Of a stretch of DNA of 64,000 nt, positions 13,295-62,037 are shown piece by piece (the first letter of the stretch is position 1; each line of letters opens with the position of its first letter). Source of the DNA: a virus. The position numbers and the translations under genes were made by a program. Under the pieces are notes generated by a model, which was not told where the DNA came from, searched no databases, and saw nothing but the letters and a program-made list of their open reading frames with translations. The stretch covers positions 36,936 to 100,935 of the IMG/VR virus record IMGVR_UViG_3300006738_000004; one strand, written 5' to 3'.

Positions 13295-16200
13295 GTGCCG
13301 GTTTTTCTACCAGGGTTGATGGGGGGGTTTGGATACGGAGGCAATGCCTACGGATTCTCACCTTACGGTAGTGCGGCACATCCCAGGCTCCCGGTCCCAC
13401 CGGGTGGAGGCTACGGCGGGGCTGCTTACGGCCTCTCGTCCTACGGCTCTGTAGACATCACCCCTCCAAGGGTGACAGGAGCGAACCCTATCGACGGGTT
13501 CACCGTGGAAGTCCTCTTCAGTGAAGAGATGGCCCACGACAGCCACCTCTTCCTGTCTACTAACTACACCTTTGGGGCCACTTATGGCGTCCCTCTCACG
13601 ACCGTTTCGGTTGAGGGGGGAACCCCAGGCTCCCACGGGGGCTTTACCTCCGTCATCATCACCCATACGGGTACGACACTGGGAGGCTTGTACCTCCTTA
13701 CGGTGAATGACGGCCTCACTGGGCCTCGTGATTTGGCGGGGAACATCGTTGGGCCACCACCAACGAACTCGGCATCGTTTTCTGCTTACGGGGACCCCAC
13801 GACGTTCAAAGTCGAGGTTCCTCCTAACAATGATGACGGCCACACGGTGCTTCTGGAGTTCTTTGATTCAAGGCAGCAGTTTCAGCCCTTGCTCCCTGAA
13901 GCAGAGTTTACTCCTGGAGTAGACGACACGGTCTCGTACTCGCTCGACACCGAGTACCCCGTCGTCCCAACCATCAACTCAGCGGAGCAGGTCACAGCCC
14001 TTCCAGCCAAGGTGTTCTTGGACATCAGCCCGATGACCAAGACGACCTACGGGCTAACGGTTGGCCCCGCAAGGGCGCTTACCTACAAGGCTGCCGTGCT
14101 GCCTGATGTTGACCCGGATTTCGACGGGGTTGAGGTAGGGACGGGGACTTCCACCCTTGGGGAAGGTCAACTCCTTCTTACCAAGGATCAAGGAGTCACT
14201 TACGGCTGGTCCTTTGGGGATACGTCTGGTCGGCTTGTGGGAGGGACTTCCTTCCGGGCAGACATCAACTTCGATGCAGGCTCGGCGGCTATCTACCCGC
14301 CGATGTCGAGTTCCTCACTCTTCAGCTTCACGGTGAACGATGGGCAGCGTCAGGTGACGCTGACGCTGGCCGACATCGCTGGAACCAAGGTCATCGACAT
14401 CAGCACCCCTCTCGGGGCCATTGGGTCGGTTCCTGCTGAATGGGGGGAGGTCGGGACATCAGACACCCTCTCCCTTGTCAGAAACCAGAAGGGTGCCTTC
14501 TACTCGGTCCTGTTCAACGGGGTGCCCCTTCTTACGTTCCCTGTGGGGGGCGTGACTCCCACCACAATCCCAGTGGGGGTGCAGGCCCTCCTCCTGAGTG
14601 CCCACAAGGTAGGACTGTTCAAGATCGCCTATCTGGGCGTTTCAGCTTCCACGACGGTCTTTACTGACACTTGGAACTTCATCCACGACCTTGCGGGGAT
14701 CTTTGTAGGTTCTGGGGTTCTGGCACGGGACAGGATTCTCACTGACCGTGGGCCTTTGGTTCGTGGGTGGGGTGACGCTACTCCCGCTACCAAGGATGAG
14801 GTAGCGGTATGGGTCGAGGGTGTGGAAGTCGAGGTAGCGGATGTAAATCCCTACGTTGGGGAGATTTACCCCGCTATTCCCATACCCTTGTCTGCTCCTG
14901 GCACGGTTTCTGTGGCCTTGGACTACATTTGGTTCTCCAACCCTCCAATGAAGATGGAGGGCCTGAACACGAGGGGCCTCACCCTCAACAAATGGGATCG
15001 CTCGGTAGGCCACACACCTGGGGCGCTCGCCCCACTGCCCGCATCTTCAATGGGGGCCTTCCGGCACCACCGTTTCCCCATGGGAACGGCTTTGGGTCCT
15101 GTAGCCCGGAAGTCACCAAAGCAGATCGGCCACAGGTACATGGGTTTCCAGTTGGGGGGCTATTCTGCCCTTTTGAACCAACCGACGACCCTTTTGACGA
15201 ACCAAAACCCTCACGAGTTGTCGGTTGGGGGCCTAAAGGCGCAAAGTCAAGCAACGTCCGTCTTGTTCGACGGGGAGACCTCTCCTACTAATGCTTCAAC
15301 CCCGTGGGTTTTGCACGGGGTTGATTCAGGAGCAGTCTCTGCTAACAGCACCTACACCTTAGTGGATGCCAGTGCTGGCTCTTACGCCACGGGGACCGCT
15401 GCCTTTTACGAACAGAACATCGACCTATCCCTGGATTGCCACGTTGAGTTAGGGCTTCGCCTAAAGGTGGACGACTCTGCGGGGACCTACGACGGGGTGT
15501 TCTCAGGAATCGCATGTGGGATTCATGATGGCCTACACCTGCTCATGGTCGGCTTCCTCAAGATTGATGGGGTTCGATCTCTCGGGCTTCTCAAAAACGC
15601 ATCCCGTCCCGACTTTGAGGAGTCCTGGGAGGTGGGTCCTTCAGTAAGCGGGACAGCCACCACCGAAACGACGATAGACGTTCCTTACGACCCCATGCTC
15701 AACGGGATCAAGAGTGGATCTAAGGTTCGGATTCCCTCAGGCCCGCAGACAGGCGTCTACACGATAGCGGAGTGTGGCCTTTATCTGAACGACCTGGGCA
15801 CCGTAACTCTTGTGCTGGAGGAGGCCCTTCCTGAGCCTGTGCATCTTCTCGGGAACGACACAGTTGACCTCTTGTTCGATGTTCCATGGAACGAGGAGTT
15901 CGTTTCACTTCGATCCGTGTCTTTATTCCCAGCAGGGACAGCCTCAGTTTCGATTGGGGGGTCTGTCTCGGGTCCCTTGGCAGAGAACTTTGAGGTCACG
16001 GCCTACCCAGCCGACACTGCTTTACTGATTCCAGCAGTTCCCAAGGGACCTCAGAATGGAGTCGTGTTCTGGGGGTCCGTTTCACGGCCTGCAATCAACA
16101 CCTCAGTCTGGGAAACGGTCCAGTACTCGGTCATCCCTAAGTACCTCGTAGAAGCCTCTCATGGAATCACAGTTCTAACAGAGATGGGGGTCGTTCCTGA

Positions 16201-19132
16201 AGAGGACATGAACACCCCATGGTTCATCGCCGGGGGCTTTGGATTGTCACGAGTGGACTCAACTGGGGACACCCTCCTCCTCAAGTCTACTTCTTGCACA
16301 ACCCCACCCCTTGGGGAGGCTCCTCTTACCTTCTCTTACAACCGGGCGGTCCCTTACCTTAGCCCCAAGGTGCGGACAGAGGTGGAGGCCACCTTCCAGG
16401 TGGACTCCTCTATTCGGGGGAGCGGCTCTGCCTCCCTGCTGATCGAAGACACAGAGAAAATGGCTGAGGCCACAACGCTGTTCTTTCGAGAGGGGTCCGT
16501 TGCTGGCGTAGCAGGGGATTTCAGAACCCTGCTCGATCTTCCCTTCTGCTCGTTGTCCGGGTTGCTGGACCCTGAGACAGCGGGGTGGGCACCATTCTCC
16601 TGGAACAGTGGCATCAACACAGCCGTTCCTTACGGGCAAAGGCTCGTCGTTTCCCAAGGCGGTATTGGTGGCTCTCAGTGGCAGCAAGAGGCCACCCTTG
16701 ATGCTGCCACGACCCTCTTTTGCATCACGGAGGGGGTGATTTTCGAGGCCACTGTAAAGGTGCTCGCAACTACTCCCGACCTTGGAAAGGCAGGCCCCAG
16801 TTTTGGCGGCCTTGTGCCTTGGGGCGGCGGCCACAGCCAAGTTATGCTGGACTTCCTCTCAGACGGGTTTGTCGGGCTGATCAGGACCAGTGATGCTGCG
16901 ATTCTTGCCTCATTCTATGTGGGTTGGGAGGACGGAACAGAACAGTTCTATCGGCTGGTCTGCGACCCCAGTGCGAACCTTGTAGTTCTCTCGGTAAACG
17001 ACACTGTTGTAGGAACCGTCTCCCTTTCCTCGTTCACCATCGTCCCAGACCTTGACCCGCTCATGTTTAGGACGGTGTTTGGCGTGGTTGGTTCGGCAGT
17101 GTCCCTTTCATCTTGGGACGGCGTCAGCGGCGTTCCCCTGAAGGTTCGCGGAAGAGCAGAGGGGGACATCACCCTGAAGCGCACTCTTGGCATTTACCTC
17201 GGGGGCGGTCGTGAGGACATCAACCATTACCGGATTCCTCGTAGTGACTCGTCAACTGCTGCTAACTCCAGTAGCAGTGCCCAGCCCATCGAGATGGACT
17301 GGACAAACCCCCTGCGGGTGCGGCTGTACCACGACCCTGAATGGGGCGTATGCCTTTACCGTCCCGACCTTCCCCCTCCTCCCTGGCACACCGGGGACTT
17401 TGCTACGGAGACGACTGACCCCAGCGCAGCTTGGATCAGTGTGGAAAGTGCAGACCTCCCCTTCCACAGCACCCTAAAGGGGGCGATCCGTTGGGGGTCC
17501 GTCAACCCCCGCTCCATCACGCAGCAGCGATGGGATTCAGTGAGGTACCGCTTGAGGGGCGCACCCGACGGCTTCGGCATTGCTCCTCAAAACATGCTCC
17601 TGAACCGATCCCACCGGATGACCTCGGGGGAGTTCCTGTACGACACCACCCCTGAAGTGGTCACAGTCAACTCTGCGGGTGCGAGAGAGGTCAATGTACG
17701 GGCTTGCGGAATCTACGCTGACCGGGTTTTTTCGGTCCAGGTGGATGGCGCTTTGCTCCCGTTTGCGGATTGGAACTTTGACTCCGACACCCAACTGCTG
17801 GTGCTGAGAACAGCCCTTCCTTCTGACACCTACCCCGTCACAGTCACGTTTGCCGCTGCCCACCCCATCACCGAAACTTACCTGTGCTCGCAGCCTATTG
17901 AAGGATCGGTCACCCTCCTCAACGAGGGGACACCTCCTATTCCCAAGAGCTTGGATACCGCCAGCATCAGGGAAATCTTGGCAGGTTCCCGCCTGAACGA
18001 CCCCCTGGATGTACTGGATGATGCTGAAACCCTCATCATCAATGACCCCCACCGAGTCATCAAGTTTAGGGAAACGGAGACCTCTCTCTATACGGACCTG
18101 ACGTTCTGCGAGGTGGAAGACGGCGAGAACATCTGGATTTCCACCTTGTGCGACGGGCCGGGGATTGGGGAGGGGTTCTCGGACATCAAGATTGAAGGCA
18201 CCGATTACGCCAACTCCTTCTCAGTGCCGGAAGGTCCCGTGGGTCCATGGGGGAAATCCTCTCCCACAATCAAGGGGTCCGCGACCCACTTCGACCAGTC
18301 TTCTGTGCTCCTTGCTTCAGGCGGTGTGATTCAGGGCGGCGTGCTCGGACCAGGAACTGCGGTTCTACACCCCAACGCGAGAGGTCCTTCAGGTAAGCCT
18401 CCTCCAGGAATGGGCCTGAATCAGGACTTCCGCATTGTCCTCTCTGCCCAGGCCGTATTGACGGATGCGACAGTAGACCCTCCTGTTGAACAAGCCCTGG
18501 AAGAGAGATTCGACACCCAACGCCCTATGGGGGATAACGTACCTCCCACCGAAGCTCTCCCGGTCTCAAGCAACCCGGATGGGGTCCCTGGACTCCACAA
18601 CCTGGGCAAGTGTGTGGCCCGTCTTGAGGACTATGGGTCGGATACCTCCACTTCAAGGCTGGGGCCATGGGGAGCCAAAACGTGGTTCGGGGAAGTCACT
18701 GTCCTGGACAACGCCGCTATCCTGGACGGGGACACCATCACTATCGCGGGGCTTCCGCTCACTGCTCGAATGTTTGCCCCTCCTGGAGGAACGGACGAGT
18801 TCCAGATTGGGATTGATGCTGCGGAGACTGTGGCAAACATTCGAGATGCGATCAACGACACCTCGAACAGCTTTGTGGGTCTGTGTCACTCCCAAGTGGA
18901 ATCACTCCCCATTACAAATCAGGCAAACATCTCATCATCACGAGAGCTTACGTTCGTCCTGAGTAATGGGGCTGCCTTCCGGCCTAACCCCAGGACCGGG
19001 CTGTTCAGCAAACGGTCCCTTCTGGGCGGTGGCGCACAACTGGATGGCTACCAGTTCATTCTGGGCGGGGGTGTTGCACTACCAAGCCCAACTGTTACAG
19101 AGTTCACCATCGAAGCGACTCCCCCGCCATAG
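13295..19132 (+). CDS. very large baseplate/tail structural protein (1945 aa) with Ig-like domains
   Basis: N-terminal GYGGxxYGxSxYGS repeats; Big_5-like DITPPRVTGA...VEVLFSEEM...DLAGN. Confidence 0.65.
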   Translation: MPVFLPGLMGGFGYGGNAYGFSPYGSAAHPRLPVPPGGGYGGAAYGLSSYGSVDITPPRVTGANPIDGFTVEVLFSEEMAHDSHLFLSTNYTFGATYGVPLTTVSVEGGTPGSHGGFTSVIITHTGTTLGGLYLLTVNDGLTGPRDLAGNIVGPPPTNSASFSAYGDPTTFKVEVPPNNDDGHTVLLEFFDSRQQFQPLLPEAEFTPGVDDTVSYSLDTEYPVVPTINSAEQVTALPAKVFLDISPMTKTTYGLTVGPARALTYKAAVLPDVDPDFDGVEVGTGTSTLGEGQLLLTKDQGVTYGWSFGDTSGRLVGGTSFRADINFDAGSAAIYPPMSSSSLFSFTVNDGQRQVTLTLADIAGTKVIDISTPLGAIGSVPAEWGEVGTSDTLSLVRNQKGAFYSVLFNGVPLLTFPVGGVTPTTIPVGVQALLLSAHKVGLFKIAYLGVSASTTVFTDTWNFIHDLAGIFVGSGVLARDRILTDRGPLVRGWGDATPATKDEVAVWVEGVEVEVADVNPYVGEIYPAIPIPLSAPGTVSVALDYIWFSNPPMKMEGLNTRGLTLNKWDRSVGHTPGALAPLPASSMGAFRHHRFPMGTALGPVARKSPKQIGHRYMGFQLGGYSALLNQPTTLLTNQNPHELSVGGLKAQSQATSVLFDGETSPTNASTPWVLHGVDSGAVSANSTYTLVDASAGSYATGTAAFYEQNIDLSLDCHVELGLRLKVDDSAGTYDGVFSGIACGIHDGLHLLMVGFLKIDGVRSLGLLKNASRPDFEESWEVGPSVSGTATTETTIDVPYDPMLNGIKSGSKVRIPSGPQTGVYTIAECGLYLNDLGTVTLVLEEALPEPVHLLGNDTVDLLFDVPWNEEFVSLRSVSLFPAGTASVSIGGSVSGPLAENFEVTAYPADTALLIPAVPKGPQNGVVFWGSVSRPAINTSVWETVQYSVIPKYLVEASHGITVLTEMGVVPEEDMNTPWFIAGGFGLSRVDSTGDTLLLKSTSCTTPPLGEAPLTFSYNRAVPYLSPKVRTEVEATFQVDSSIRGSGSASLLIEDTEKMAEATTLFFREGSVAGVAGDFRTLLDLPFCSLSGLLDPETAGWAPFSWNSGINTAVPYGQRLVVSQGGIGGSQWQQEATLDAATTLFCITEGVIFEATVKVLATTPDLGKAGPSFGGLVPWGGGHSQVMLDFLSDGFVGLIRTSDAAILASFYVGWEDGTEQFYRLVCDPSANLVVLSVNDTVVGTVSLSSFTIVPDLDPLMFRTVFGVVGSAVSLSSWDGVSGVPLKVRGRAEGDITLKRTLGIYLGGGREDINHYRIPRSDSSTAANSSSSAQPIEMDWTNPLRVRLYHDPEWGVCLYRPDLPPPPWHTGDFATETTDPSAAWISVESADLPFHSTLKGAIRWGSVNPRSITQQRWDSVRYRLRGAPDGFGIAPQNMLLNRSHRMTSGEFLYDTTPEVVTVNSAGAREVNVRACGIYADRVFSVQVDGALLPFADWNFDSDTQLLVLRTALPSDTYPVTVTFAAAHPITETYLCSQPIEGSVTLLNEGTPPIPKSLDTASIREILAGSRLNDPLDVLDDAETLIINDPHRVIKFRETETSLYTDLTFCEVEDGENIWISTLCDGPGIGEGFSDIKIEGTDYANSFSVPEGPVGPWGKSSPTIKGSATHFDQSSVLLASGGVIQGGVLGPGTAVLHPNARGPSGKPPPGMGLNQDFRIVLSAQAVLTDATVDPPVEQALEERFDTQRPMGDNVPPTEALPVSSNPDGVPGLHNLGKCVARLEDYGSDTSTSRLGPWGAKTWFGEVTVLDNAAILDGDTITIAGLPLTARMFAPPGGTDEFQIGIDAAETVANIRDAINDTSNSFVGLCHSQVESLPITNQANISSSRELTFVLSNGAAFRPNPRTGLFSKRSLLGGGAQLDGYQFILGGGVALPSPTVTEFTIEATPPP

Positions 19133-19178
19133 GGAATCTGCTTTATAGGCAGGTTCAAAGGCGAACATGAACTACCGT

Positions 19179-19193
19179 CGGTTTTTCCCTTAT
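19179..19193 (+). promoter_or_regulatory. class B motif variant CGGT-N7-TTAT
   Basis: CGGT ttttccc TTAT upstream of 19236. Confidence 0.5.
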
Positions 19194-19235
19194 CGGAGGC
19201 GTCGGTGAGCACAAAACTTTTCCAGGAGGAAACAT

Positions 19236-19739
19236 ATGCGACACTTTCTAACCTTGATCGTGCTGGTACTCGGTCTGACGGTTCCAACCGCTGCTTTTGC
19301 GGAAGAACCTGCTGCGGCTGAAGCAACGGAAGAGGCGGCTCCCGCTTCAGATGAAGCCGCACCTGCGGGGGACGAAGCTGCGGCAGATGAGGCTGCTGGT
19401 GACGAGGAAGTCCCGGACACTCTCGATGATGCCGCTGACGACATCAGCTTGCTCGTGAAGGCAGTCCAGGACAAGAACTGGTCCCTGGCTCTTGGTTTCT
19501 TGCTGATGCTCCTTGTCATGCTTGCCAACAAGTTCGGCCTGAAGGACAAGGTTGGCTCCAAGGCGGTCCCGTGGGTCGCTATGGGCCTCGCTGTGGCCGC
19601 TACCAGTGGTATTGGGCTGGCTAACGGTCTGGCGCTGATGGATGCTGGTATGCAGGGTGTTCTGGCTGGCGTGGCTGCCATTGGTGGCTGGGAGTTGCTT
19701 TTCAAGCACATCCTCCAGAGCAAGCCCGCTGCTGACTGA
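19236..19739 (+). CDS. membrane protein: signal peptide, acidic Ala-rich linker, about 3 TM helices (holin-like C-terminus)
   Basis: MRHFLTLIVLVLGLTVPTAAFA-EE signal; hydrophobic segments; AGGAGG RBS. Confidence 0.7.
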   Translation: MRHFLTLIVLVLGLTVPTAAFAEEPAAAEATEEAAPASDEAAPAGDEAAADEAAGDEEVPDTLDDAADDISLLVKAVQDKNWSLALGFLLMLLVMLANKFGLKDKVGSKAVPWVAMGLAVAATSGIGLANGLALMDAGMQGVLAGVAAIGGWELLFKHILQSKPAAD

Positions 19740-19759
19740 GTAACCTCAGTCCACAAACT

Positions 19760-20010
19760 CAGACGCCCCCCGGAGAGATTCTCGGGGGGCGTTCTGCGCT
19801 TACCGCCCCAGGTTTTTGCCGACTGGGGGCTTCGGCCCTAATGTGGTGGGTCCATGGGGACCTCCAGGAGAGAGGAAGTTTCAGCGGACTCCTTTGGCCT
19901 GCCGCTGCGTCAGGGGTGCGACCTGAGCTTCGCGCACCGGAAACCGCCTTGGGTGGGGACACTGGCGAAGGCCCCTAAATCTAATCCATCGAGCTTCTCT
20001 CCTCTTCTTG
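19760..20010 (-). ncRNA. putative structured non-coding RNA (~250 nt)
   Basis: Class A motif upstream and hairpin downstream; several stems whose G-U pairs favour the - strand; the only RBS-led ATG gives Met-Asp-stop. Confidence 0.5.
19763..19792. terminator. GC-rich hairpin, possible bidirectional terminator
   Basis: ACGCCCCCCG-N10-CGGGGGGCGT; a second hairpin GACTGAG-TAAC-CTCAGTC at 19734-19751; no long U tail. Confidence 0.55.
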
Positions 20011-20017
20011 AACTCTC

Positions 20018-20045
20018 TACGGGAGCCGCTGGGAACGGGAACCCC
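20018..20045 (-). promoter_or_regulatory. class A motif
   Basis: - strand GGGGTTC CCGTTCCCAGCGGCTC CCGTA. Confidence 0.75.
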
Positions 20046-20051
20046 TTCTCT

Positions 20052-20066
20052 CGATGATTTGGCTAT
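20052..20066 (+). promoter_or_regulatory. class B motif CGAT-N7-CTAT
   Basis: CGAT gatttgg CTAT upstream of 20135. Confidence 0.7.
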
Positions 20067-20134
20067 GAGTCAGGGTGTTCGACACCATGTGCGGAGTGTG
20101 CTCGGTAGAGTGCCGGACATGGAGGCAAGGTGAC

Positions 20135-20773
20135 ATGGGTTCAATGATGAAGGACAGGTTCCAATCTCCTCGTGGCCGGGTAAGCCTTGGTTTCACCATG
20201 GAGCAAGCTGCTGTGATGGCCCTTCCCAAGGGAGAGGTCTTCATTGAGATGGTGGATGGCAAGACGGGAGAGGTCCTTTTCAAGGAACATCGCCCCAACG
20301 TCATCACCGCTGACGCAGGCATTCAAGCCGCTCGCTACTTCAAGGACCCTTCGGAGCCTGCCAGCGGGGCCAACATGCTGGCTGTGGGCACCGGAGCTAC
20401 GGGTGCCCTGTTGTCTCCCGACGCCCCAAGCCCTGACCAACGGGGTTTGAATGCGGAGATTTCCAGGAAGGCGTGGGCTTCCACTACGTTCAGGAACGCC
20501 GATGGTGGCGCGTCAGAGATCCCCACCAACGTGGTGGATTTCACCTGCACCTATGACGAGGCAGAAGCAGTCGGTCCTCTGAATGAGATGGGCATCCTGT
20601 CCACACGCTCGGACAACCCGTTGATCACCTACCCCAACCCGGACATCTACCCGGCTCGGGAACTGTCACGGGACTTGCGGGACTACGATGTGCTGATCAA
20701 CTACCTGACTTTCGCGGTGATCTCGAAGCCCAGCACCGCTCGGCTGACCATTACTTGGCGAATCACGTTCTAA
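20135..20773 (+). CDS. tail collar/baseplate-type structural protein
   Basis: NVIT..G...MLAVGTG...L.AEISRK...EAVGPLNEMGI...ISK...LTITWRITF pattern of phage tail-collar-like proteins. Confidence 0.7.
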   Translation: MGSMMKDRFQSPRGRVSLGFTMEQAAVMALPKGEVFIEMVDGKTGEVLFKEHRPNVITADAGIQAARYFKDPSEPASGANMLAVGTGATGALLSPDAPSPDQRGLNAEISRKAWASTTFRNADGGASEIPTNVVDFTCTYDEAEAVGPLNEMGILSTRSDNPLITYPNPDIYPARELSRDLRDYDVLINYLTFAVISKPSTARLTITWRITF

Positions 20774-21500
20774 GCACGGCCTCCAACTCCTTGGCAGCAG
20801 CTTCGGTTAGCTCCATGAGGAAGTCTTCTTCCTCGTTGTAGGCAAGGTAGTGCCCTTCGTGAAGGACGATGCTGCGGATAGTGCAGTAGGGATAAGGGAG
20901 GCTTTCCCGACCAGTGCCGGGATTTCCCATGGAGCCGGACTCATCGACTACGACCATGGGAGGACTCGGCTCTCCAAAGGTGGAGAGGGGAGGCAGTTCC
21001 CCGACTCCTCCCACCATGTTCTGAAGTATTTGGGGCTTGTCTTCCACCACGGTCACTTCATGGCCGTTGGCCCATACAACATCATCCTTGCCGGGTCCTA
21101 CACGGAAGCCAAGGCGGTCACCCTTGACCCAGAAGACCTTCCCTTCCGAAGAGCCGTCGAGAGTGCGGACATGCTCTCCCTTGGAGGGCATCTTGGGGGT
21201 GACGAGGGCCAGAATCCCGCTCCAGGTTTGTCCTGCGGGGGGTTGGGGGTTTCGGCAGAGGTCATCAGGGAAACCCGGCAGAACTACCTCGACGTTAGAG
21301 GCCGCAGTCCAATGGACTGTGTCAGCCGCATCTTTGATGCCGATGCGGAGACCGTGGTTGTGGAGACCTCCCTCCCCTTCCCAAAAAACGACGCCTCGTA
21401 CTCCATGAGGAACCTTCCGGCCTTTCACCACAACGACGCTCTTCCCCTTCTGGACCGAAAAGAGAGTGTCACGGGCCTCTTGTTCTGCTGGAGTGGTCAT
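20763..21500 (-). CDS. hypothetical protein, tandem SH3/KOW-like domains plus a C-terminal domain shared with 38634-39158
   Basis: Two KG..V......G.VFW.....R.G repeats; GAGG RBS; class A motif upstream. Confidence 0.7.
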   Translation of the reverse strand: MTTPAEQEARDTLFSVQKGKSVVVVKGRKVPHGVRGVVFWEGEGGLHNHGLRIGIKDAADTVHWTAASNVEVVLPGFPDDLCRNPQPPAGQTWSGILALVTPKMPSKGEHVRTLDGSSEGKVFWVKGDRLGFRVGPGKDDVVWANGHEVTVVEDKPQILQNMVGGVGELPPLSTFGEPSPPMVVVDESGSMGNPGTGRESLPYPYCTIRSIVLHEGHYLAYNEEEDFLMELTEAAAKELEAVLRT

Positions 21501-21528
21501 CTTGTGGTTTCCTCACCTTTAGGGGATC

Positions 21529-21556
21529 TACGGCAGCAAGAGGCCAATGGAACCCC
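21529..21556 (-). promoter_or_regulatory. class A motif
   Basis: - strand GGGGTTC CATTGGCCTCTTGCTG CCGTA. Confidence 0.75.
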
Positions 21557-21563
21557 CCTTTCT

Positions 21564-21578
21564 CGGTTCCATGCCTAT
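21564..21578 (+). promoter_or_regulatory. class B motif
   Basis: CGGT tccatgc CTAT upstream of 21605. Confidence 0.7.
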
Positions 21579-21604
21579 CGAGATGGACAAGCGGAGGTGG
21601 CTCT

Positions 21605-21784
21605 ATGGGATGCGGATGTCGCAAGAAGACTGGTCGCAAGAAGACGGCAAGTCATGTGAAAAAGCCCATCGCATCAAAGCCATTGCCAAACAACTTCGTG
21701 TCCAAAGCCTCCCCGAAAAGTCGAGGTGTGAGAAGGAGCGGGACGTATACGCGCACTGCTTCAGGGTCGGTGGTGCGGAAATGA
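21605..21784 (+). CDS. 59-aa highly basic protein (MGCGCRKKTGRKK...), missing from the ORF track
   Basis: GGAGGT RBS; own class B motif; ends just before the next class B motif. Confidence 0.65.
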   Translation: MGCGCRKKTGRKKTASHVKKPIASKPLPNNFVSKASPKSRGVRRSGTYTRTASGSVVRK

Positions 21785-21799
21785 ATCAGGAGCGCGTTT

Positions 21800-21814
21800 C
21801 GGTGTCCCGGCTAT
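21800..21814 (+). promoter_or_regulatory. class B motif
   Basis: CGGT gtcccgg CTAT upstream of 21863. Confidence 0.7.
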
Positions 21815-21862
21815 ACGCCGCGATGCCGTAGGTAAGGTACTCCCTCGGAGCGGGAATCCCGG

Positions 21863-24800
21863 ATGGCTATCAGAGATAAATACTTCACAGGTTCCACAGT
21901 CTCACGATACCTCCCGCCAGGGGAGCATTCGTGGGATGAGGCTGTGTACCAGTCCGGCAAGCCGGTTCTGGACGCTGAACTGAACCTATCCCAAGAGGTC
22001 GGGCGTCAACTCCGGTCCTTGGTACAGCAACGCACTGTCCCGTCTGGGTGGTTGCGGGGACCTGTTCCCCCTCGCTTCAACGAAGGGATTTCCTTCCTTC
22101 CCACCTCCAACCCCAACTTCGCCCCCAACACGTTTTGGATGGGGAAGAGGACCGCTCTCGTTGCGGGTGCCCCCATTGTGGTGGAGTTTTCCAACACCGA
22201 CCTGCCTAACATAAACCGGATCGACCTGGATGCGGCCACCGTTTACGAAGGGACCGGCACCTCCATCAAGCGCACGGACTTCGTGTTCCTTGAGGTATGG
22301 CGTTGCCTTGTCTCCCACTCCCCCCGTGCTTCAGCGACGGTCGAGGTGGTGACTTGGGGTGACCTGGATGCGGCTGATCAGATCCTCATCAACGCGGTTG
22401 TCCTGCAAGCGACAACGGGTGGGCCAGCACTCAACACGTTCAACCTGGGCCTGAATGCCAATGAGACTGCCGCGAACATCGCCGCAGCCATCAATGAGCC
22501 TCTGAACGCCTTTACGGGGATCTGCACGGCTGCGGTGGACGTATCGGACCCCACCCAGGTGAACCTCACCACTGTCGATGCTTTGGCCGGGGCCGCTGGA
22601 AATGCAGTGACCCTGAGCCTTGCCCTCACCAATGCAGGCAGCATGACGGTGAATGCGGGACCAGGACCCACGACCTTTGCGGGTGGTGCGGACACGCCCA
22701 ACAAGCCCACGCAGTTCTCCCTCTATCGAAACGGAAACGTCCAGTCCCCCCTTGCCACCAACCTCCCTGACGAGATCGCGGACCCCACCATCGGGACCGA
22801 GACAACCAAGCGAGTTCAGTGGCAGTACAGGATTCGAGCCACCGGGGCGGCTGAGGGCGTCAACTTCAAGACCCAGCACGACGGTTTCTCGCAGCCCAAT
22901 GTCCAGGCTCAAGGGTCCCAAGCTGCTCCTCTTGGGGCGCTCTTCCCCTTTGTCAAAGCAGACATGACTTCGGTGATCGACAACAGCAGTGCTGTTGCCT
23001 ACGACATCCGTGATCCTGGCCTGTGGATTTCCGGTGATGGGACTTCTGCTTCAGCGACCGCCCTTGGAACTGTCGATGGCTATGTCTATGCAGTGCCCAT
23101 CGGTTTCGTGTTCCGTAGAAACGATGCCTACAACGGCGGGGTATCAGCACCCCCGCTGGGTCAGGGGTTTTCCCCTCTGGACAACACGAATGGAGGGTTG
23201 CCTTTCACCCATCCCTTGTTCGTGAACCCGTACATTGGAACCATTGAACCTAACGAGTCAGACCGCCCTGACGGTCAGTTCTATGATGTCATCTCCGACA
23301 CGGACTTCCTCGACCTGCGGAAGAACGTGTATCCAGGAGGTATTGACCTCAAAGCAGAGCTTGAGCGCCAGATGGGCTTGGTCCTGGACAACACGCTGGG
23401 GACCTGGGCGATTGATTCAGGGGATAAGTCCGGCGCGATGGGCGGTGGCTCTGGGGATGTGAGTTGGAAGTACATGGTCTGCAACGAGATTGGTCGTGCA
23501 GATGCAGAAGGAGGCAACCCGCAAAACTCCGGGGACACCCTCCGGGGCAACTTCATCGCCAACTTCGATCATGTTCGCCGTCGTTTCGGAGACCAAGCTG
23601 TCGTAGAGCTTCGGGTTTTCCCGATCCTGCCAACCGACATTGCGATCAATGAGCCTGGGAAGTTCGTCATCAAGGACAACCCAGCTACGCAGCCCCTTTG
23701 CTGGGCTGAAGATGATGTCATCCACATTGACCTGAGCAGTCTGAACGCTACCGGGGATGGGACTTGGGCTGAAGCAACTGAAACCTACCACGGCGGCTCT
23801 GGCGGTTTTGTTTCCAACTTCTTCCCGTCAGGCACCTTGATCACTGGAATCAACACCATCCGACATGACGACGGGCAATCCACCGCTGTTGTGGTTCCCG
23901 AAGTCCAGATGAAGCTCGTTACTGGGCTGGGCACGGACTACGTTCAAATCACGCTGGATAGGAATGACACACCCTGTGATGGCGGCGGTATCGCGGGCTA
24001 TCCAGGCACAACGATTTCCATGTCTGCTCCAACAGCAGCCAACGACACGGGAAGCCCTCGACGCATCTTCGTGGAGTTGGAGATCACCTACCCGGTAGGC
24101 TCTGGAACTTCCGACACGCCCTGGCTGGACGCCAATGACGAGTCCGTGGTTCCAGATGCTCCCACCTCTGTGGGGGTGTATGACTTCGGCCCTGCTGTTG
24201 AAGACGGCGACGTCAGTCAGAGGCCCCCGGATTTCAATGAGCAGTTGCCGCCCTTGTTCCGGCCCTCACACCGGGAGATCCAGGTTGAGTATGCGTGTGG
24301 CGACCCCGGTGCCCCCGGATCTGCGTACACGGACATACTCATCTCCGCAGATCCGCTGAACATCACCGTGCCACGACGCATGTACGGATCGAAGAACACG
24401 GAAGCCACTGTCACAGACCTTATTTCAGGAACCGCCCGTGCAGTAGACCATTCAACCACTCACTACGGGATGTCCTCCCGGCGTCTGGTTCTCAACGACA
24501 CGGGGACCGCACCTGCCATCCCGCTTACCAATACAGGCTCTACGCCCGTTACTGTGAACTGGTGGCCTCAGGACCCCATCCCCAACTCTGGGGGTAGTGA
24601 CGGCTACCAGCTTGCCTTCTACTACCGGACCCAGGCAGAGCAGACGGTAGGGAGCCAAACGGGTATTCCCAGTCTCCCCGAGAACCTTGTAGTGGAGCCT
24701 CTGGTGATGGCCCGTAGCCTGTGGACTAACACGGTTTCCGTAGGCTCAGTAGATGTCCCCTTCCCGTACCTGAACCCGTCAGACCAAATCCCAGTCAACG

Positions 24801-54547: not shown

Positions 54548-54575
54548 GGGGTTCTGTAGCTTCTCCTGACCCGTA
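54548..54575 (+). promoter_or_regulatory. class A motif
   Basis: GGGGTTC TGTAGCTTCTCCTGAC CCGTA upstream of 54596. Confidence 0.75.
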
Positions 54576-54595
54576 AAGAGGGAGAGGAGAAGCTA

Positions 54596-55378
54596 ATGGC
54601 CCGCACTTTGTTCATAGGCGACGTTCACGGCATGGCCGATGAGTTGCGTCAGTTGGTGGAGCGACTGGACCCCCAAGCGGGTGATGCGGTCGTTTTCGTC
54701 GGTGACTTGGTGGACAAGGGACCGGATTCCGTTGCTGTGGTTCGCATGGCGCGGGAGATGGCTGAAGCTGGGTCTTTCCAGGTCGTGTTGGTTGAAGGCA
54801 ACCACGAGGACAAGCACCGTCGGTTCCGTCGGAATAAGACGTTGCGGCCTGAGGTTGCTGAACAGCAAGCTGCTCGGTCCCCCGTATTGGCTGAGGTCAC
54901 GGAAGCCTTGTCTCAAGAAGACGTGGCCTTCTTGGACTCTGCTGTGCCTTTCCACAAGGTCCCTGAACACGGCATATTGGTCGTTCACGGCGGTGTCCCT
55001 GGTGACATGGTGGAGTTCCCGGCTGAGACAGTCGAGGAAGCCGCTGCTTTGACGGGTAAGGCCAAGCGTCGGTTGCAGTTGTTGCAGCGCACTCGGTTCG
55101 TTTCTGTCAGCACAGGAGGCTTCTTGAAGTTGGGCACTGAATCCGAAGCTGATCCGTTCTGGGCTGAAGTCTTCGACGGTCGGTTTGGTCATGTTGTGTT
55201 CGGCCATGAGCCTTTCATGGATGGCCCCGGTATGTTCCCTCACGCTACAGGCGTGGACACGGGTGCCGTGTTCGGGGGGTCGTTGACAGCTTTGGTTGTC
55301 GAAGCCTCTGGAGAGCGGTCTTTCGTGTCCGTTCCTGGGCGTAAGTTCAGCGAGCGGTGGAGTTCCCCTGGCCGGTAG
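54596..55378 (+). CDS. calcineurin-like metallophosphoesterase (PrpE/ApaH/Pnkp-phosphatase-like)
   Basis: GDVHG, GDLVDKGPDS, GNHE, VHGG, VFGH, DTGAVFGGSLTA. Confidence 0.9.
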   Translation: MARTLFIGDVHGMADELRQLVERLDPQAGDAVVFVGDLVDKGPDSVAVVRMAREMAEAGSFQVVLVEGNHEDKHRRFRRNKTLRPEVAEQQAARSPVLAEVTEALSQEDVAFLDSAVPFHKVPEHGILVVHGGVPGDMVEFPAETVEEAAALTGKAKRRLQLLQRTRFVSVSTGGFLKLGTESEADPFWAEVFDGRFGHVVFGHEPFMDGPGMFPHATGVDTGAVFGGSLTALVVEASGERSFVSVPGRKFSERWSSPGR

Positions 55379-60952: not shown

Positions 60953-61334
60953 GTGAGCAACTTTGACTTCATCCCATCCCATCCCTGGTACCAAGGGAGG
61001 TGGGAACCACCCCTTCCAAAGGCGGCCCCCATGTGGCCGCCTTCTACTCGGAGGCTCCCCAAAAAAGCGGCCCCAGATCGCTCAAAGCAGACGCTGGTTG
61101 CAACAACGCGGTGTGCTCAGAAAAGCTCAGTCTGAACTTCCTCTTTTACGTCGAAAAGGGTGTTTTCGATAAGCAAGGTTGAACCTGGGTTTTCGAGGGG
61201 TGTTTTTTGAGCCTCAGAAATCTCTGAGCTTACGGACAGTTCCCCGGCTCGAATCATGCTTCAGGAACCAGTGATGTCGCTCACGGACCTTCACGGACTG
61301 GATCTCACCGGCTGCTAAAATCCTGCTGACGGGG

Positions 61335-61362
61335 GGGGTTCCATTTGGGCGGCCTCACCGTA
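61335..61362 (+). promoter_or_regulatory. class A motif
   Basis: GGGGTTC CATTTGGGCGGCCTCA CCGTA; no convincing CDS downstream. Confidence 0.7.
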
Positions 61363-61367
61363 GAGAA

Positions 61368-61780
61368 CACAGAGGGCTTCCCCTTCATCCCACGGGGTGG
61401 AGAACAGTCCTCAAGCCTCCCCCGGCTCTAAGCGGGTTCGGTCTCTGCCGACCCTAAACGCAGCACCCTCTCACTGGTGTAAAAAGGGAGCGCCTTCTCC
61501 CTGGTGTGAAACGGAGCGTGAGCCTACCGGACGTTATACCGGAGGCGTAGCCGACTACGTTAGTGTTGGGGTTCCAACCCACCTTACGGGGGCGTGTGAC
61601 CACGGGCGATACCGGGGGGTTCCAACCCACCTTACGGGGGCGCGGCTGCGAAATGCGAGAAGACGCAGGGGTTGGCCTCCCTTATCGGGCCACCCACTTT
61701 CATTTACCCTTCCACAGCGCCGTTAGAGTCGGTGACCAGGGGATAGGCAACCCCGTTGAGTTGTGGGAGGGTTCCCTTCA
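61368..61780 (+). ncRNA. putative structured ncRNA containing 27-bp direct repeats
   Basis: Downstream of a class A motif; many stems, including 13-bp 61706-61718/61760-61772 with two G-U pairs on the + strand. Confidence 0.45.
61568..61642. repeat. two identical 27-bp direct repeats GGGGTTCCAACCCACCTTACGGGGGCG separated by 21 bp
   Basis: 61568-61594 and 61616-61642; a degenerate third copy near 61668. Confidence 0.9.
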
Positions 61781-61794
61781 AATGGCGGGAATGG

Positions 61795-61822
61795 GGGGTT
61801 CCCCTTTTCCTCTTCGCCCGTA
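61795..61822 (+). promoter_or_regulatory. class A motif
   Basis: GGGGTTC CCCTTTTCCTCTTCGC CCGTA; no CDS downstream. Confidence 0.7.
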
Positions 61823-61827
61823 GAGAG

Positions 61828-62037
61828 ACTAAGCCCACGATAGTGCCCGGTGACTTACCTTCTTCAAGACCGGATTCAGGCTTCGTGTAAGAAGGCGGTC
61901 CACGCGACACAGTGGAACGGCCCCCAGTAGGCCCGACGTTGCCGACGTTGCAGCGAGGCCAAACAGGGTTGCAGGTGCTGCAAAGCCCCCTCTCCTAAAG
62001 CCCCGTTGATCTGGACGGCACAAGGGAGGTGGTTTCG
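61828..62037 (+). ncRNA. putative structured ncRNA (~200 nt), convergent with the glutamine synthetase gene
   Basis: Class A motif upstream; stems CCTTCTT/AAGAAGG and TTGCAGC/GCTGCAA. Confidence 0.4.

Follow-up and report, generated by a model that had tools for sequence, protein, structure and literature searches.

A 395-nt gap between two genes of a phage G-like huge phage seems, with slightly better than even confidence, to hold a lineage-specific and self-contained accessory "RNA moron" on the minus strand, the core of which would act as RNA in trans. The gap contains a promoter motif directed down the minus strand, lacks coding capacity, carries a constrained core, is part of a lineage-specific insertion and is bounded by a hairpin. 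From these features we infer the transcription of the unit, the ends and fold of its RNA, the action in trans and the role given to the ribosome. The case has moderate weight, as it is built on one pairwise comparison and on an RNA that is predicted from sequence.

Source genome and gene neighbourhood

The window, a stretch of 64,000 nucleotides, belongs to a virus record of 100.9 kb from IMG/VR, with a GC content of 58% and a completeness of 22% according to CheckV. The nearest cultured relative of the protein encoded beside the gap (20135-20773) is gp190 of Bacillus phage G, with 30% identity, and an uncultured 485-kb phage encodes a relative with 47% identity; the window is therefore taken to come from a huge phage with a genome of roughly 450 kb. 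The genes around the gap are the following:

13295-19132, plus strand: gene of 1945 aa
19236-19739, plus strand: gene of 167 aa, whose product combines a signal peptide, a TM region and an acidic stretch of low complexity and weakly matches a holin PHROG
395-nt gap between two plus strand genes: holds the candidate RNA unit
20135-20773, plus strand: neighbour gene, phrog_5417 (E 2.7e-19)
20763-21500, minus strand: class A gene of 245 aa
21863-25267, plus strand: gene

The preliminary description had located the unit antisense within a structural module, and this agrees with the map, where it appears as a minus strand insertion among plus strand structural genes.

Some of the surrounding proteins deserve a comment of their own. 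The phrog_5417 protein is well conserved and has a very broad distribution (803 proteins at E<=1e-3), and many of its homologues, from marine, lake and sediment metagenomes, have 60-70% identity. There are two copies of it in the 552-kb contig Ga0080013_1000001, and its homologue in Tunturi_5 is annotated as a virion structural protein. The 245-aa gene overlaps the 3′ end of this convergent neighbour by 11 nt and, like the RNA unit, is confined to the lineage of the window and its relative L001. Its product has two internal repeats (KG..V....G.VFW...G.R.G......W....EV), and the structural leads obtained for it in a protein atlas are weak (KOW-like, TM about 0.3). In the 167-aa membrane protein, the acidic low-complexity part (19236-19376) has an indel between the window and an otherwise identical twin, L017.

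Relatives were gathered by protein-guided scans with the neighbour gene and by DNA-pattern scans, which produced 8 viral and 53 metagenome loci. Of the loci fetched, only the window, L017, L001 and L002 have the gap with its class A motif and core. L017 is a twin of the window across the gap, with one SNP at 19779. L001, on a 180-kb IMG/VR contig, and L002 are identical here, with a neighbour protein that has 88% identity to that of the window, and the L001 sequence was assembled identically in two metagenomes. More than 50 loci of more distant relatives that contain the neighbour gene lack the RNA unit and, in distant relatives (<=72% identity) such as L018 and L020, this gene comes directly after the preceding one. 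Consequently, the unit must be considered a lineage-specific insertion. All statements on conservation refer to a single pairwise comparison, between the window and L001; closer relatives in ENA/Logan are P0001 (96%), P0002 (87%) and P0003 (76%).

Promoter motifs

The class A motif, GGGGTTC-N16-CCGTA, is found nine times in the window when 0.34 occurrences are expected, a count that was reached by none of 100 shuffled sequences, and the 180-kb relative contains it 25 times. With few exceptions, an RBS and an ATG come 14-45 nt downstream in the same direction, and the sites of the window other than that of the gap lie 14-33 nt ahead of their ATG; in total, the motif stands ahead of the RBS and ATG of about 30 genes across both phages, and the leaders often read GTTCAAGGAGG..ATG. 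In the window, the genes preceded by this motif include those for an RNase T-like exonuclease and a calcineurin-like phosphoesterase, which are accessory functions. The class B motif, CGRT-N7-CTAT, has 11 occurrences (1.09 expected), ten of them on the plus strand, with sites that include 2307, 3148, 20052, 21564, 21800, 33142, 54241, 55941, 58852 and 63364. Each class A motif on the minus strand stands back to back with a class B motif. The elements of the candidate unit and its surroundings, in the direction of the minus strand, are these:

20052-20066, plus strand: class B promoter (CGAT-N7-CTAT) of gene 20135-20773, conserved in L001 and back to back with the class A promoter
20014-20045, minus strand: class A promoter of the RNA unit (perfect motif at 20018-20045), formed by GGGGTTCC, a 15-nt spacer and CCGTAGAGA
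19990-20012, minus strand: putative transcript start and polypurine, SD-like leader GTTCAAGAAGAGGAGAGAAGCTCG
19981-19989, minus strand: mini-ORF ATG GAT TAG, with the RBS-like GAGGAGAG ahead
19878-19993, minus strand: conserved core of 116 nt, from CTCGATGG to GCTGAAAC
19793-19877, minus strand: variable 3′ part with a CU-rich stretch, an arm of the outer stem and the CCCCAG/CTGGGG hairpin, not alignable with L001
19763-19772/19783-19792, both strands: perfect 10-bp GC hairpin that probably terminates transcription in both directions, including that of the plus strand gene 19236-19739

Both class A boxes and the subsequent GAGTTCA are identical in the window and L001, while the central bases of the spacer differ at 8/8 positions. 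Such conservation of the boxes across a diverged spacer is the signature of a working promoter, so the class A promoter that the preliminary description had aimed down the minus strand is well supported by the perfection of the motif, its excess in the window and its conservation. The class B promoter of gene 20135-20773 is situated downstream of the core, which places the core outside the gene's own 5′ UTR.

A promoter scan of 19100-21900 found no sigma-70 promoters, and there is no clear phage sigma gene in the two phage fragments, where a sub-threshold Sigma70_r2 hit was obtained in the relative. ECF-sigma-type promoters have the form GGAAC-N16/17-CGT. Class A sites share with them the two short boxes separated by about 16 nt and a CGTA core in the downstream box, but their upstream box is GGGGTTC and not GGAAC.

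Two further regions of the window should be mentioned here. A second ORF-free class A unit is located at 61674-62037, with its promoter at 61795-61826 (plus strand) and neither RBS nor ATG behind it; it has 85% identity over 364 nt with the relative G001 (85118-84778), and its conservation extends further than that of the unit studied here. The region 60953-61700 has about 0.75 kb with no long ORF, a class A motif at 61335-61366 (plus strand) and a tandem pair of GGGGTTCCAACCCACCTTACGGGGGCG at 61569-61595 and 61616-61642. No tRNA or Rfam match was found in this second region, and G001 aligns to it in short pieces only.

Coding potential

Codon usage was scored as log-odds trained on nine long genes of the phage. 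Real genes, small class A genes included, obtain +0.16 to +0.36 bits/codon, and 95% of true 67-codon coding windows score above +0.13 bits/codon. By contrast, the values are -0.09, -0.36 and -0.23 bits/codon for the three ORFs that lie in the gap or overlap it. No homologues of either 67-aa ORF were found among 5.8 billion proteins in a word-indexed search, and an exhaustive search of 1.84 billion representatives gave a single low-complexity hit (E 1.5e-4) for the ORF of the plus strand; the minus strand gap ORFs tested had no match in PHROGs or Pfam. The window and L001 differ by 2-nt and 3-nt indels within the core, which exclude every shared reading frame. The description of about 250 nt with no credible CDS, in which the RBS-led ATG reads ATG GAT TAG, is thus confirmed by negative codon scores and the lack of protein homologues, and the conserved protein-coding frame that had been named as contrary evidence was looked for and found broken by indels in the relative.

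It is therefore very improbable that the core encodes a small protein, be it the 67-aa ORF at 19854-20057 on the plus strand or a minus strand ORF that starts at the ATG at 19989 and continues by read-through of the TAG codons. Such a protein would agree with the fact that the plus frame is open in the window, with about half of the substitutions falling on its third positions, and that the minus frame would be open from the ATG to 19759 if the TAG were read through. However, the 2-nt indel breaks both frames in the relative, the scores of the two ORFs (-0.09 and -0.36) are far from coding values, and the homologue searches gave only the low-complexity hit mentioned above, so that this explanation is largely refuted. 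In addition, the minus frame runs through the terminator hairpin, and code 11 leaves the large genes of the phage open, indicating that TAG is not recoded.

Conservation of the core

Over about 115 sites of the core, the window and L001 differ by 16 substitutions, plus one 3-nt and one 2-nt indel, which corresponds to 87% identity. In the adjacent gene, 52 of the 97 four-fold sites (54%) and 9.4% of codon positions 1+2 have changed. The core is, then, about four times less diverged than neutral sites; under a binomial model, the probability of 16 or fewer changes in 115 sites at the neutral 54% is 8e-19, which implies that the core is constrained about as strongly as the positions that determine amino acids. 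These values support the action of purifying selection on the 116-nt core. Beyond it, toward the terminator, nothing can be aligned with L001 until the upstream gene is reached.

The core is present as a single copy in each phage, and no paralogues of it were detected in either of them, nor was anything found in 40 related loci with the covariance model R1. Exact matches in L008, L072 and L083-L085 were rejected as chance, since they lie inside unrelated genes and have no extended similarity. The match in L008 includes a peptide, GLPLRQG, common with the plus frame, but the L008 protein has no homologue in the window.

Leader and mini-ORF

The leader GTTCAAGAAGAGGAGAGAAGCTCG is similar to the canonical ones of class A, for example GTTCAAGGAGG..ATG. 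In L001, the mini-ORF reads ATG GAT TGT ATT TAG, and an SD-like GAGGA is located 7-8 nt upstream of its ATG in both phages. L001 has a 46-nt insertion in the 5′ leader, yet a fresh GAGGA is found 8 nt before the same ATG. The preservation of the SD and the ATG may mean that ribosome loading matters for the stability of the RNA or for the switching of its fold.

As a separate observation, the class A phosphoesterase gene has a leader, GAGAGGAGAAGCTAATG (54576-54598), that is nearly identical to that of the mini-ORF, GAGGAGAGAAGCTCGATG (19987-20008). This suggests that class A cassettes could have been duplicated along with their leaders.

Predicted fold and strand

Three short hairpins are predicted on the minus strand within the core:

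19944-19968, minus strand: hairpin S1, TCGCC/GGCGG (GTCGCC/GGTGAC in the relative)
19915-19938, minus strand: hairpin S2, GGTGCG/CGCACC, with 12 nt in the loop, against 10 nt in that of the relative
19882-19907, minus strand: hairpin S3, CAGCGG/CCGCTG, with a 14-nt loop that contains AAGGAG

In S1, two changes affect one side of the stem only and leave G·U or U-A pairs, and the relative gains one pair. S2 contains the sole compensatory pair, a change from C-G to U-A, and the 2-nt indel falls in its loop. The stem of S3 is invariant, and three bases of its loop have changed. Considering the three hairpins together with the TCAGG/CCTGA pairing, 44/44 cells pair in both sequences, and this decreases to 36-46% when the partners are slid; all five substitutions at paired positions (5/5) keep the pairing, one by compensation and three via G·U.

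Other results are less favourable to a stable fold. With n=2 variants, 243/500 shuffles reach the same covariation, as the presence of only two distinct variants deprives the test of statistical power. The z scores of folding energy are -1.06 for the 251-nt transcript of the window and +0.58 and +0.44 for the cores, and the -2.69 obtained for the L001 transcript is due for the most part to the terminator hairpin and the 5′ stem of that transcript. Moreover, the compensatory pair of S2 also amounts to two synonymous third-position changes in a plus frame.

The six pairings listed in the preliminary description are all present in the window (GGTGCG/CGCACC, CAGCGG/CCGCTG, GGGGCCTTC/GGAGGTCCC, CCCCAG/CTGGGG, TCAGG/CCTGA and AGGAGAGA/TCTCTCCT), but one arm or both of the outer 9-bp stem, of CCCCAG/CTGGGG and of AGGAGAGA/TCTCTCCT cannot be aligned with L001. 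An analogous pairing of purine-rich and CU-rich stretches exists in L001, located in its 5′ insertion. With folding energies at chance, one compensatory pair from two variants and half of the pairings unconserved, the assertion that the RNA is structured is weak, and a structured RNA is no more than plausible for the core.

As for the strand, three of the G·U pairs would be A·C mismatches on the plus strand, for which the z score is -0.14. RNAalifold gives similar consensus energies for both strands (-30.35 kcal/mol for plus, -30.65 kcal/mol for minus), and the fold that it proposes for the minus strand is a different, rod-like one. The direction of class A, the placement of class B, the G·U pattern and the loop indel would favour the minus strand, only mildly.

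Terminator hairpin

The 19763-19792 hairpin is the strongest perfect intergenic hairpin in the window. It was not called in a consensus terminator scan because its U-tail is weak. Of the terminator proposed at this position, the perfect 10-bp GC hairpin bounding the unit is confirmed, and its function as a terminator is probable. At the corresponding place, L001 has a GC hairpin of different sequence, flanked by AAA and TTT. The last base of the stop codon of gene 19236-19739 is 19739, and the end of the hairpin is 24 nt further on, so this CDS is not overlapped.

Known RNA families, repeats and targets

No Rfam family was found at 19740-20134 (E up to 10, region 19000-22000), and the whole window has 0 matches at the gathering score; the claim of an unknown family is consistent with this lack of covariance-model matches. 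ARAGORN detected 0 tRNA or tmRNA genes in the window. Repeated 16-mers, sought as signs of a CRISPR-repeat mimic or mini-array, are absent from both phage fragments, and there are no flanking repeats of the kind left by mobile elements. One 21-mer, the most conserved of the core, was compared with 185,579 prokaryote genomes and gave three single hits with no extended similarity. The search for complementary targets in both phage fragments produced 10-14-mers at chance level, none of them at orthologous places.

Two familiar roles were discarded. A cis-regulatory leader or riboswitch was rejected because there is no credible minus strand gene between 19760 and 13295, and a cis-antisense RNA of the OOP type because the unit does not overlap the coding end of the convergent gene.

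Proposed mechanism and alternatives

In our model, the class A promoter at 20014-20045 would fire together with those of other class A accessory genes (for the RNase T-like exonuclease, the metallophosphoesterase and others), producing a non-coding RNA of about 250 nt that would start near 20010 and stop at the common GC hairpin (19792-19763). The functional part would be the 116-nt core (19993-19878), probably folded into three short hairpins, which would work in trans, regulating by base pairing or by binding a protein, or serving as a decoy. The SD and the mini-ORF of 2-4 codons at the 5′ edge of the core would probably load a ribosome, and this would stabilise the RNA or gate its folding. 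A more elaborate version, to which we give a low probability, is that the unit is an accessory element of a new type, one of several ORF-free class A units in this huge-phage lineage, and produces a regulatory or anti-defence RNA. A ribosome loaded at its conserved SD and mini-ORF would then switch the core between a fold in which CCGCUG pairs with the 5′ ATG region and another with the S3 hairpin.

Action in cis or locally, rather than in trans, seems unlikely to us. The minus strand RNA could affect gene 19236-19739 by antisense or transcription interference, as the unit converges on this gene and uses the same hairpin, or could be a put-like leader that modifies the polymerase and lets class A transcription pass the hairpin into antisense of the structural operon. 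Read-through is plausible given the weak U-tail, and the core lies directly behind the promoter, where put RNAs are found. On the other hand, the hairpin is 24 nt past the stop codon and the CDS is not overlapped, the part nearest the convergent gene is precisely the unconserved one, and there is no downstream gene on the minus strand to profit from read-through.

We also consider it improbable that the unit is a vestigial class A cassette, that is, a protein moron that lost its ORF and whose transcript is a by-product, with the core kept for other reasons or by later exchange. Ordinary class A genes have the same kind of leader, RBS and ATG (GTTCAAG..GGAG..ATG; GAGGAGA(G)AAGCT at 54571), and the class A half of a pair could persist, since all minus strand class A motifs are paired with class B motifs on the plus strand. 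Nevertheless, the low divergence of the core relative to neutral sites, between flanks that cannot be aligned, and the SD rebuilt before the same ATG in L001 are difficult to reconcile with a remnant, and exchange predicts near identity, whereas 87% is observed. Somewhat less likely still would be a core that works as DNA or on the plus strand, as an upstream region where a factor that controls the back-to-back class A/B promoters binds, or as a structured portion of a read-through 5′ UTR of 20135-20773. The core is located 60-175 bp upstream of the class B promoter, the inverted repeats of S2 and S3 are possible dyad sites, and the consensus fold of the plus strand equals that of the minus strand in energy. 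However, the two phages differ by 2 nt in the spacing of the S2 arms, a change that a loop would tolerate and a dimer site hardly would; the G·U pairs become mismatches and the folding energy is at chance on the plus strand; and the promoter of the plus strand gene is downstream of the core, which the hairpin separates from upstream plus strand transcription.

Comparison with known systems

Phage morons are independent insertions of promoter, gene and terminator between conserved genes, and they encode proteins. Like them, the unit comes with a promoter and a hairpin of its own, runs against the surrounding operon and interrupts a pair of genes that are contiguous in relatives (L018, L020). 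Unlike them, it has only an ORF of 2-4 codons and a conserved non-coding core. The OOP RNA of lambda is a convergent antisense RNA that overlaps the coding end of its target. It shares with the unit the short length, a promoter of its own, a terminator (putative in the unit) and the direction toward the 3′ end of a neighbour gene, but the RNA predicted here stops 24 nt beyond the stop codon and its conserved part is far from the neighbour.

The closest parallels come from giant phages. Transcriptomics of 201phi2-1 revealed 11 sRNAs, three of them intergenic (PMC11512511), and PA5oct produces four ncRNAs of 236-619 nt (PMC7318152). As in the present unit, these RNAs are ORF-free, have a few hundred nucleotides, belong to a very large phage genome and are bounded by start and stop signals, and their sequence is confined to close relatives. 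The differences are that they were seen as transcripts, while the present unit is a prediction (in 201phi2-1 and phiKZ, an sRNA is defined by a detected transcript with mapped TSS and TTS), that no relation exists in sequence or Rfam family, and that, in the present unit, the promoter class is defined and also found before genes for accessory proteins, and an SD and a mini-ORF are located at the 5′ edge. Giant phages are, in any case, already known to make such RNAs and, if real, the present unit probably belongs among them.

Huge phages are almost unexplored at the RNA level. If our reading is true, a single promoter class would serve both accessory enzymes and conserved ORF-free units, providing a handle, usable with sequence only, on regulatory or counter-defence RNAs of phages in metagenomes, and the moron concept would be extended from proteins to RNAs.
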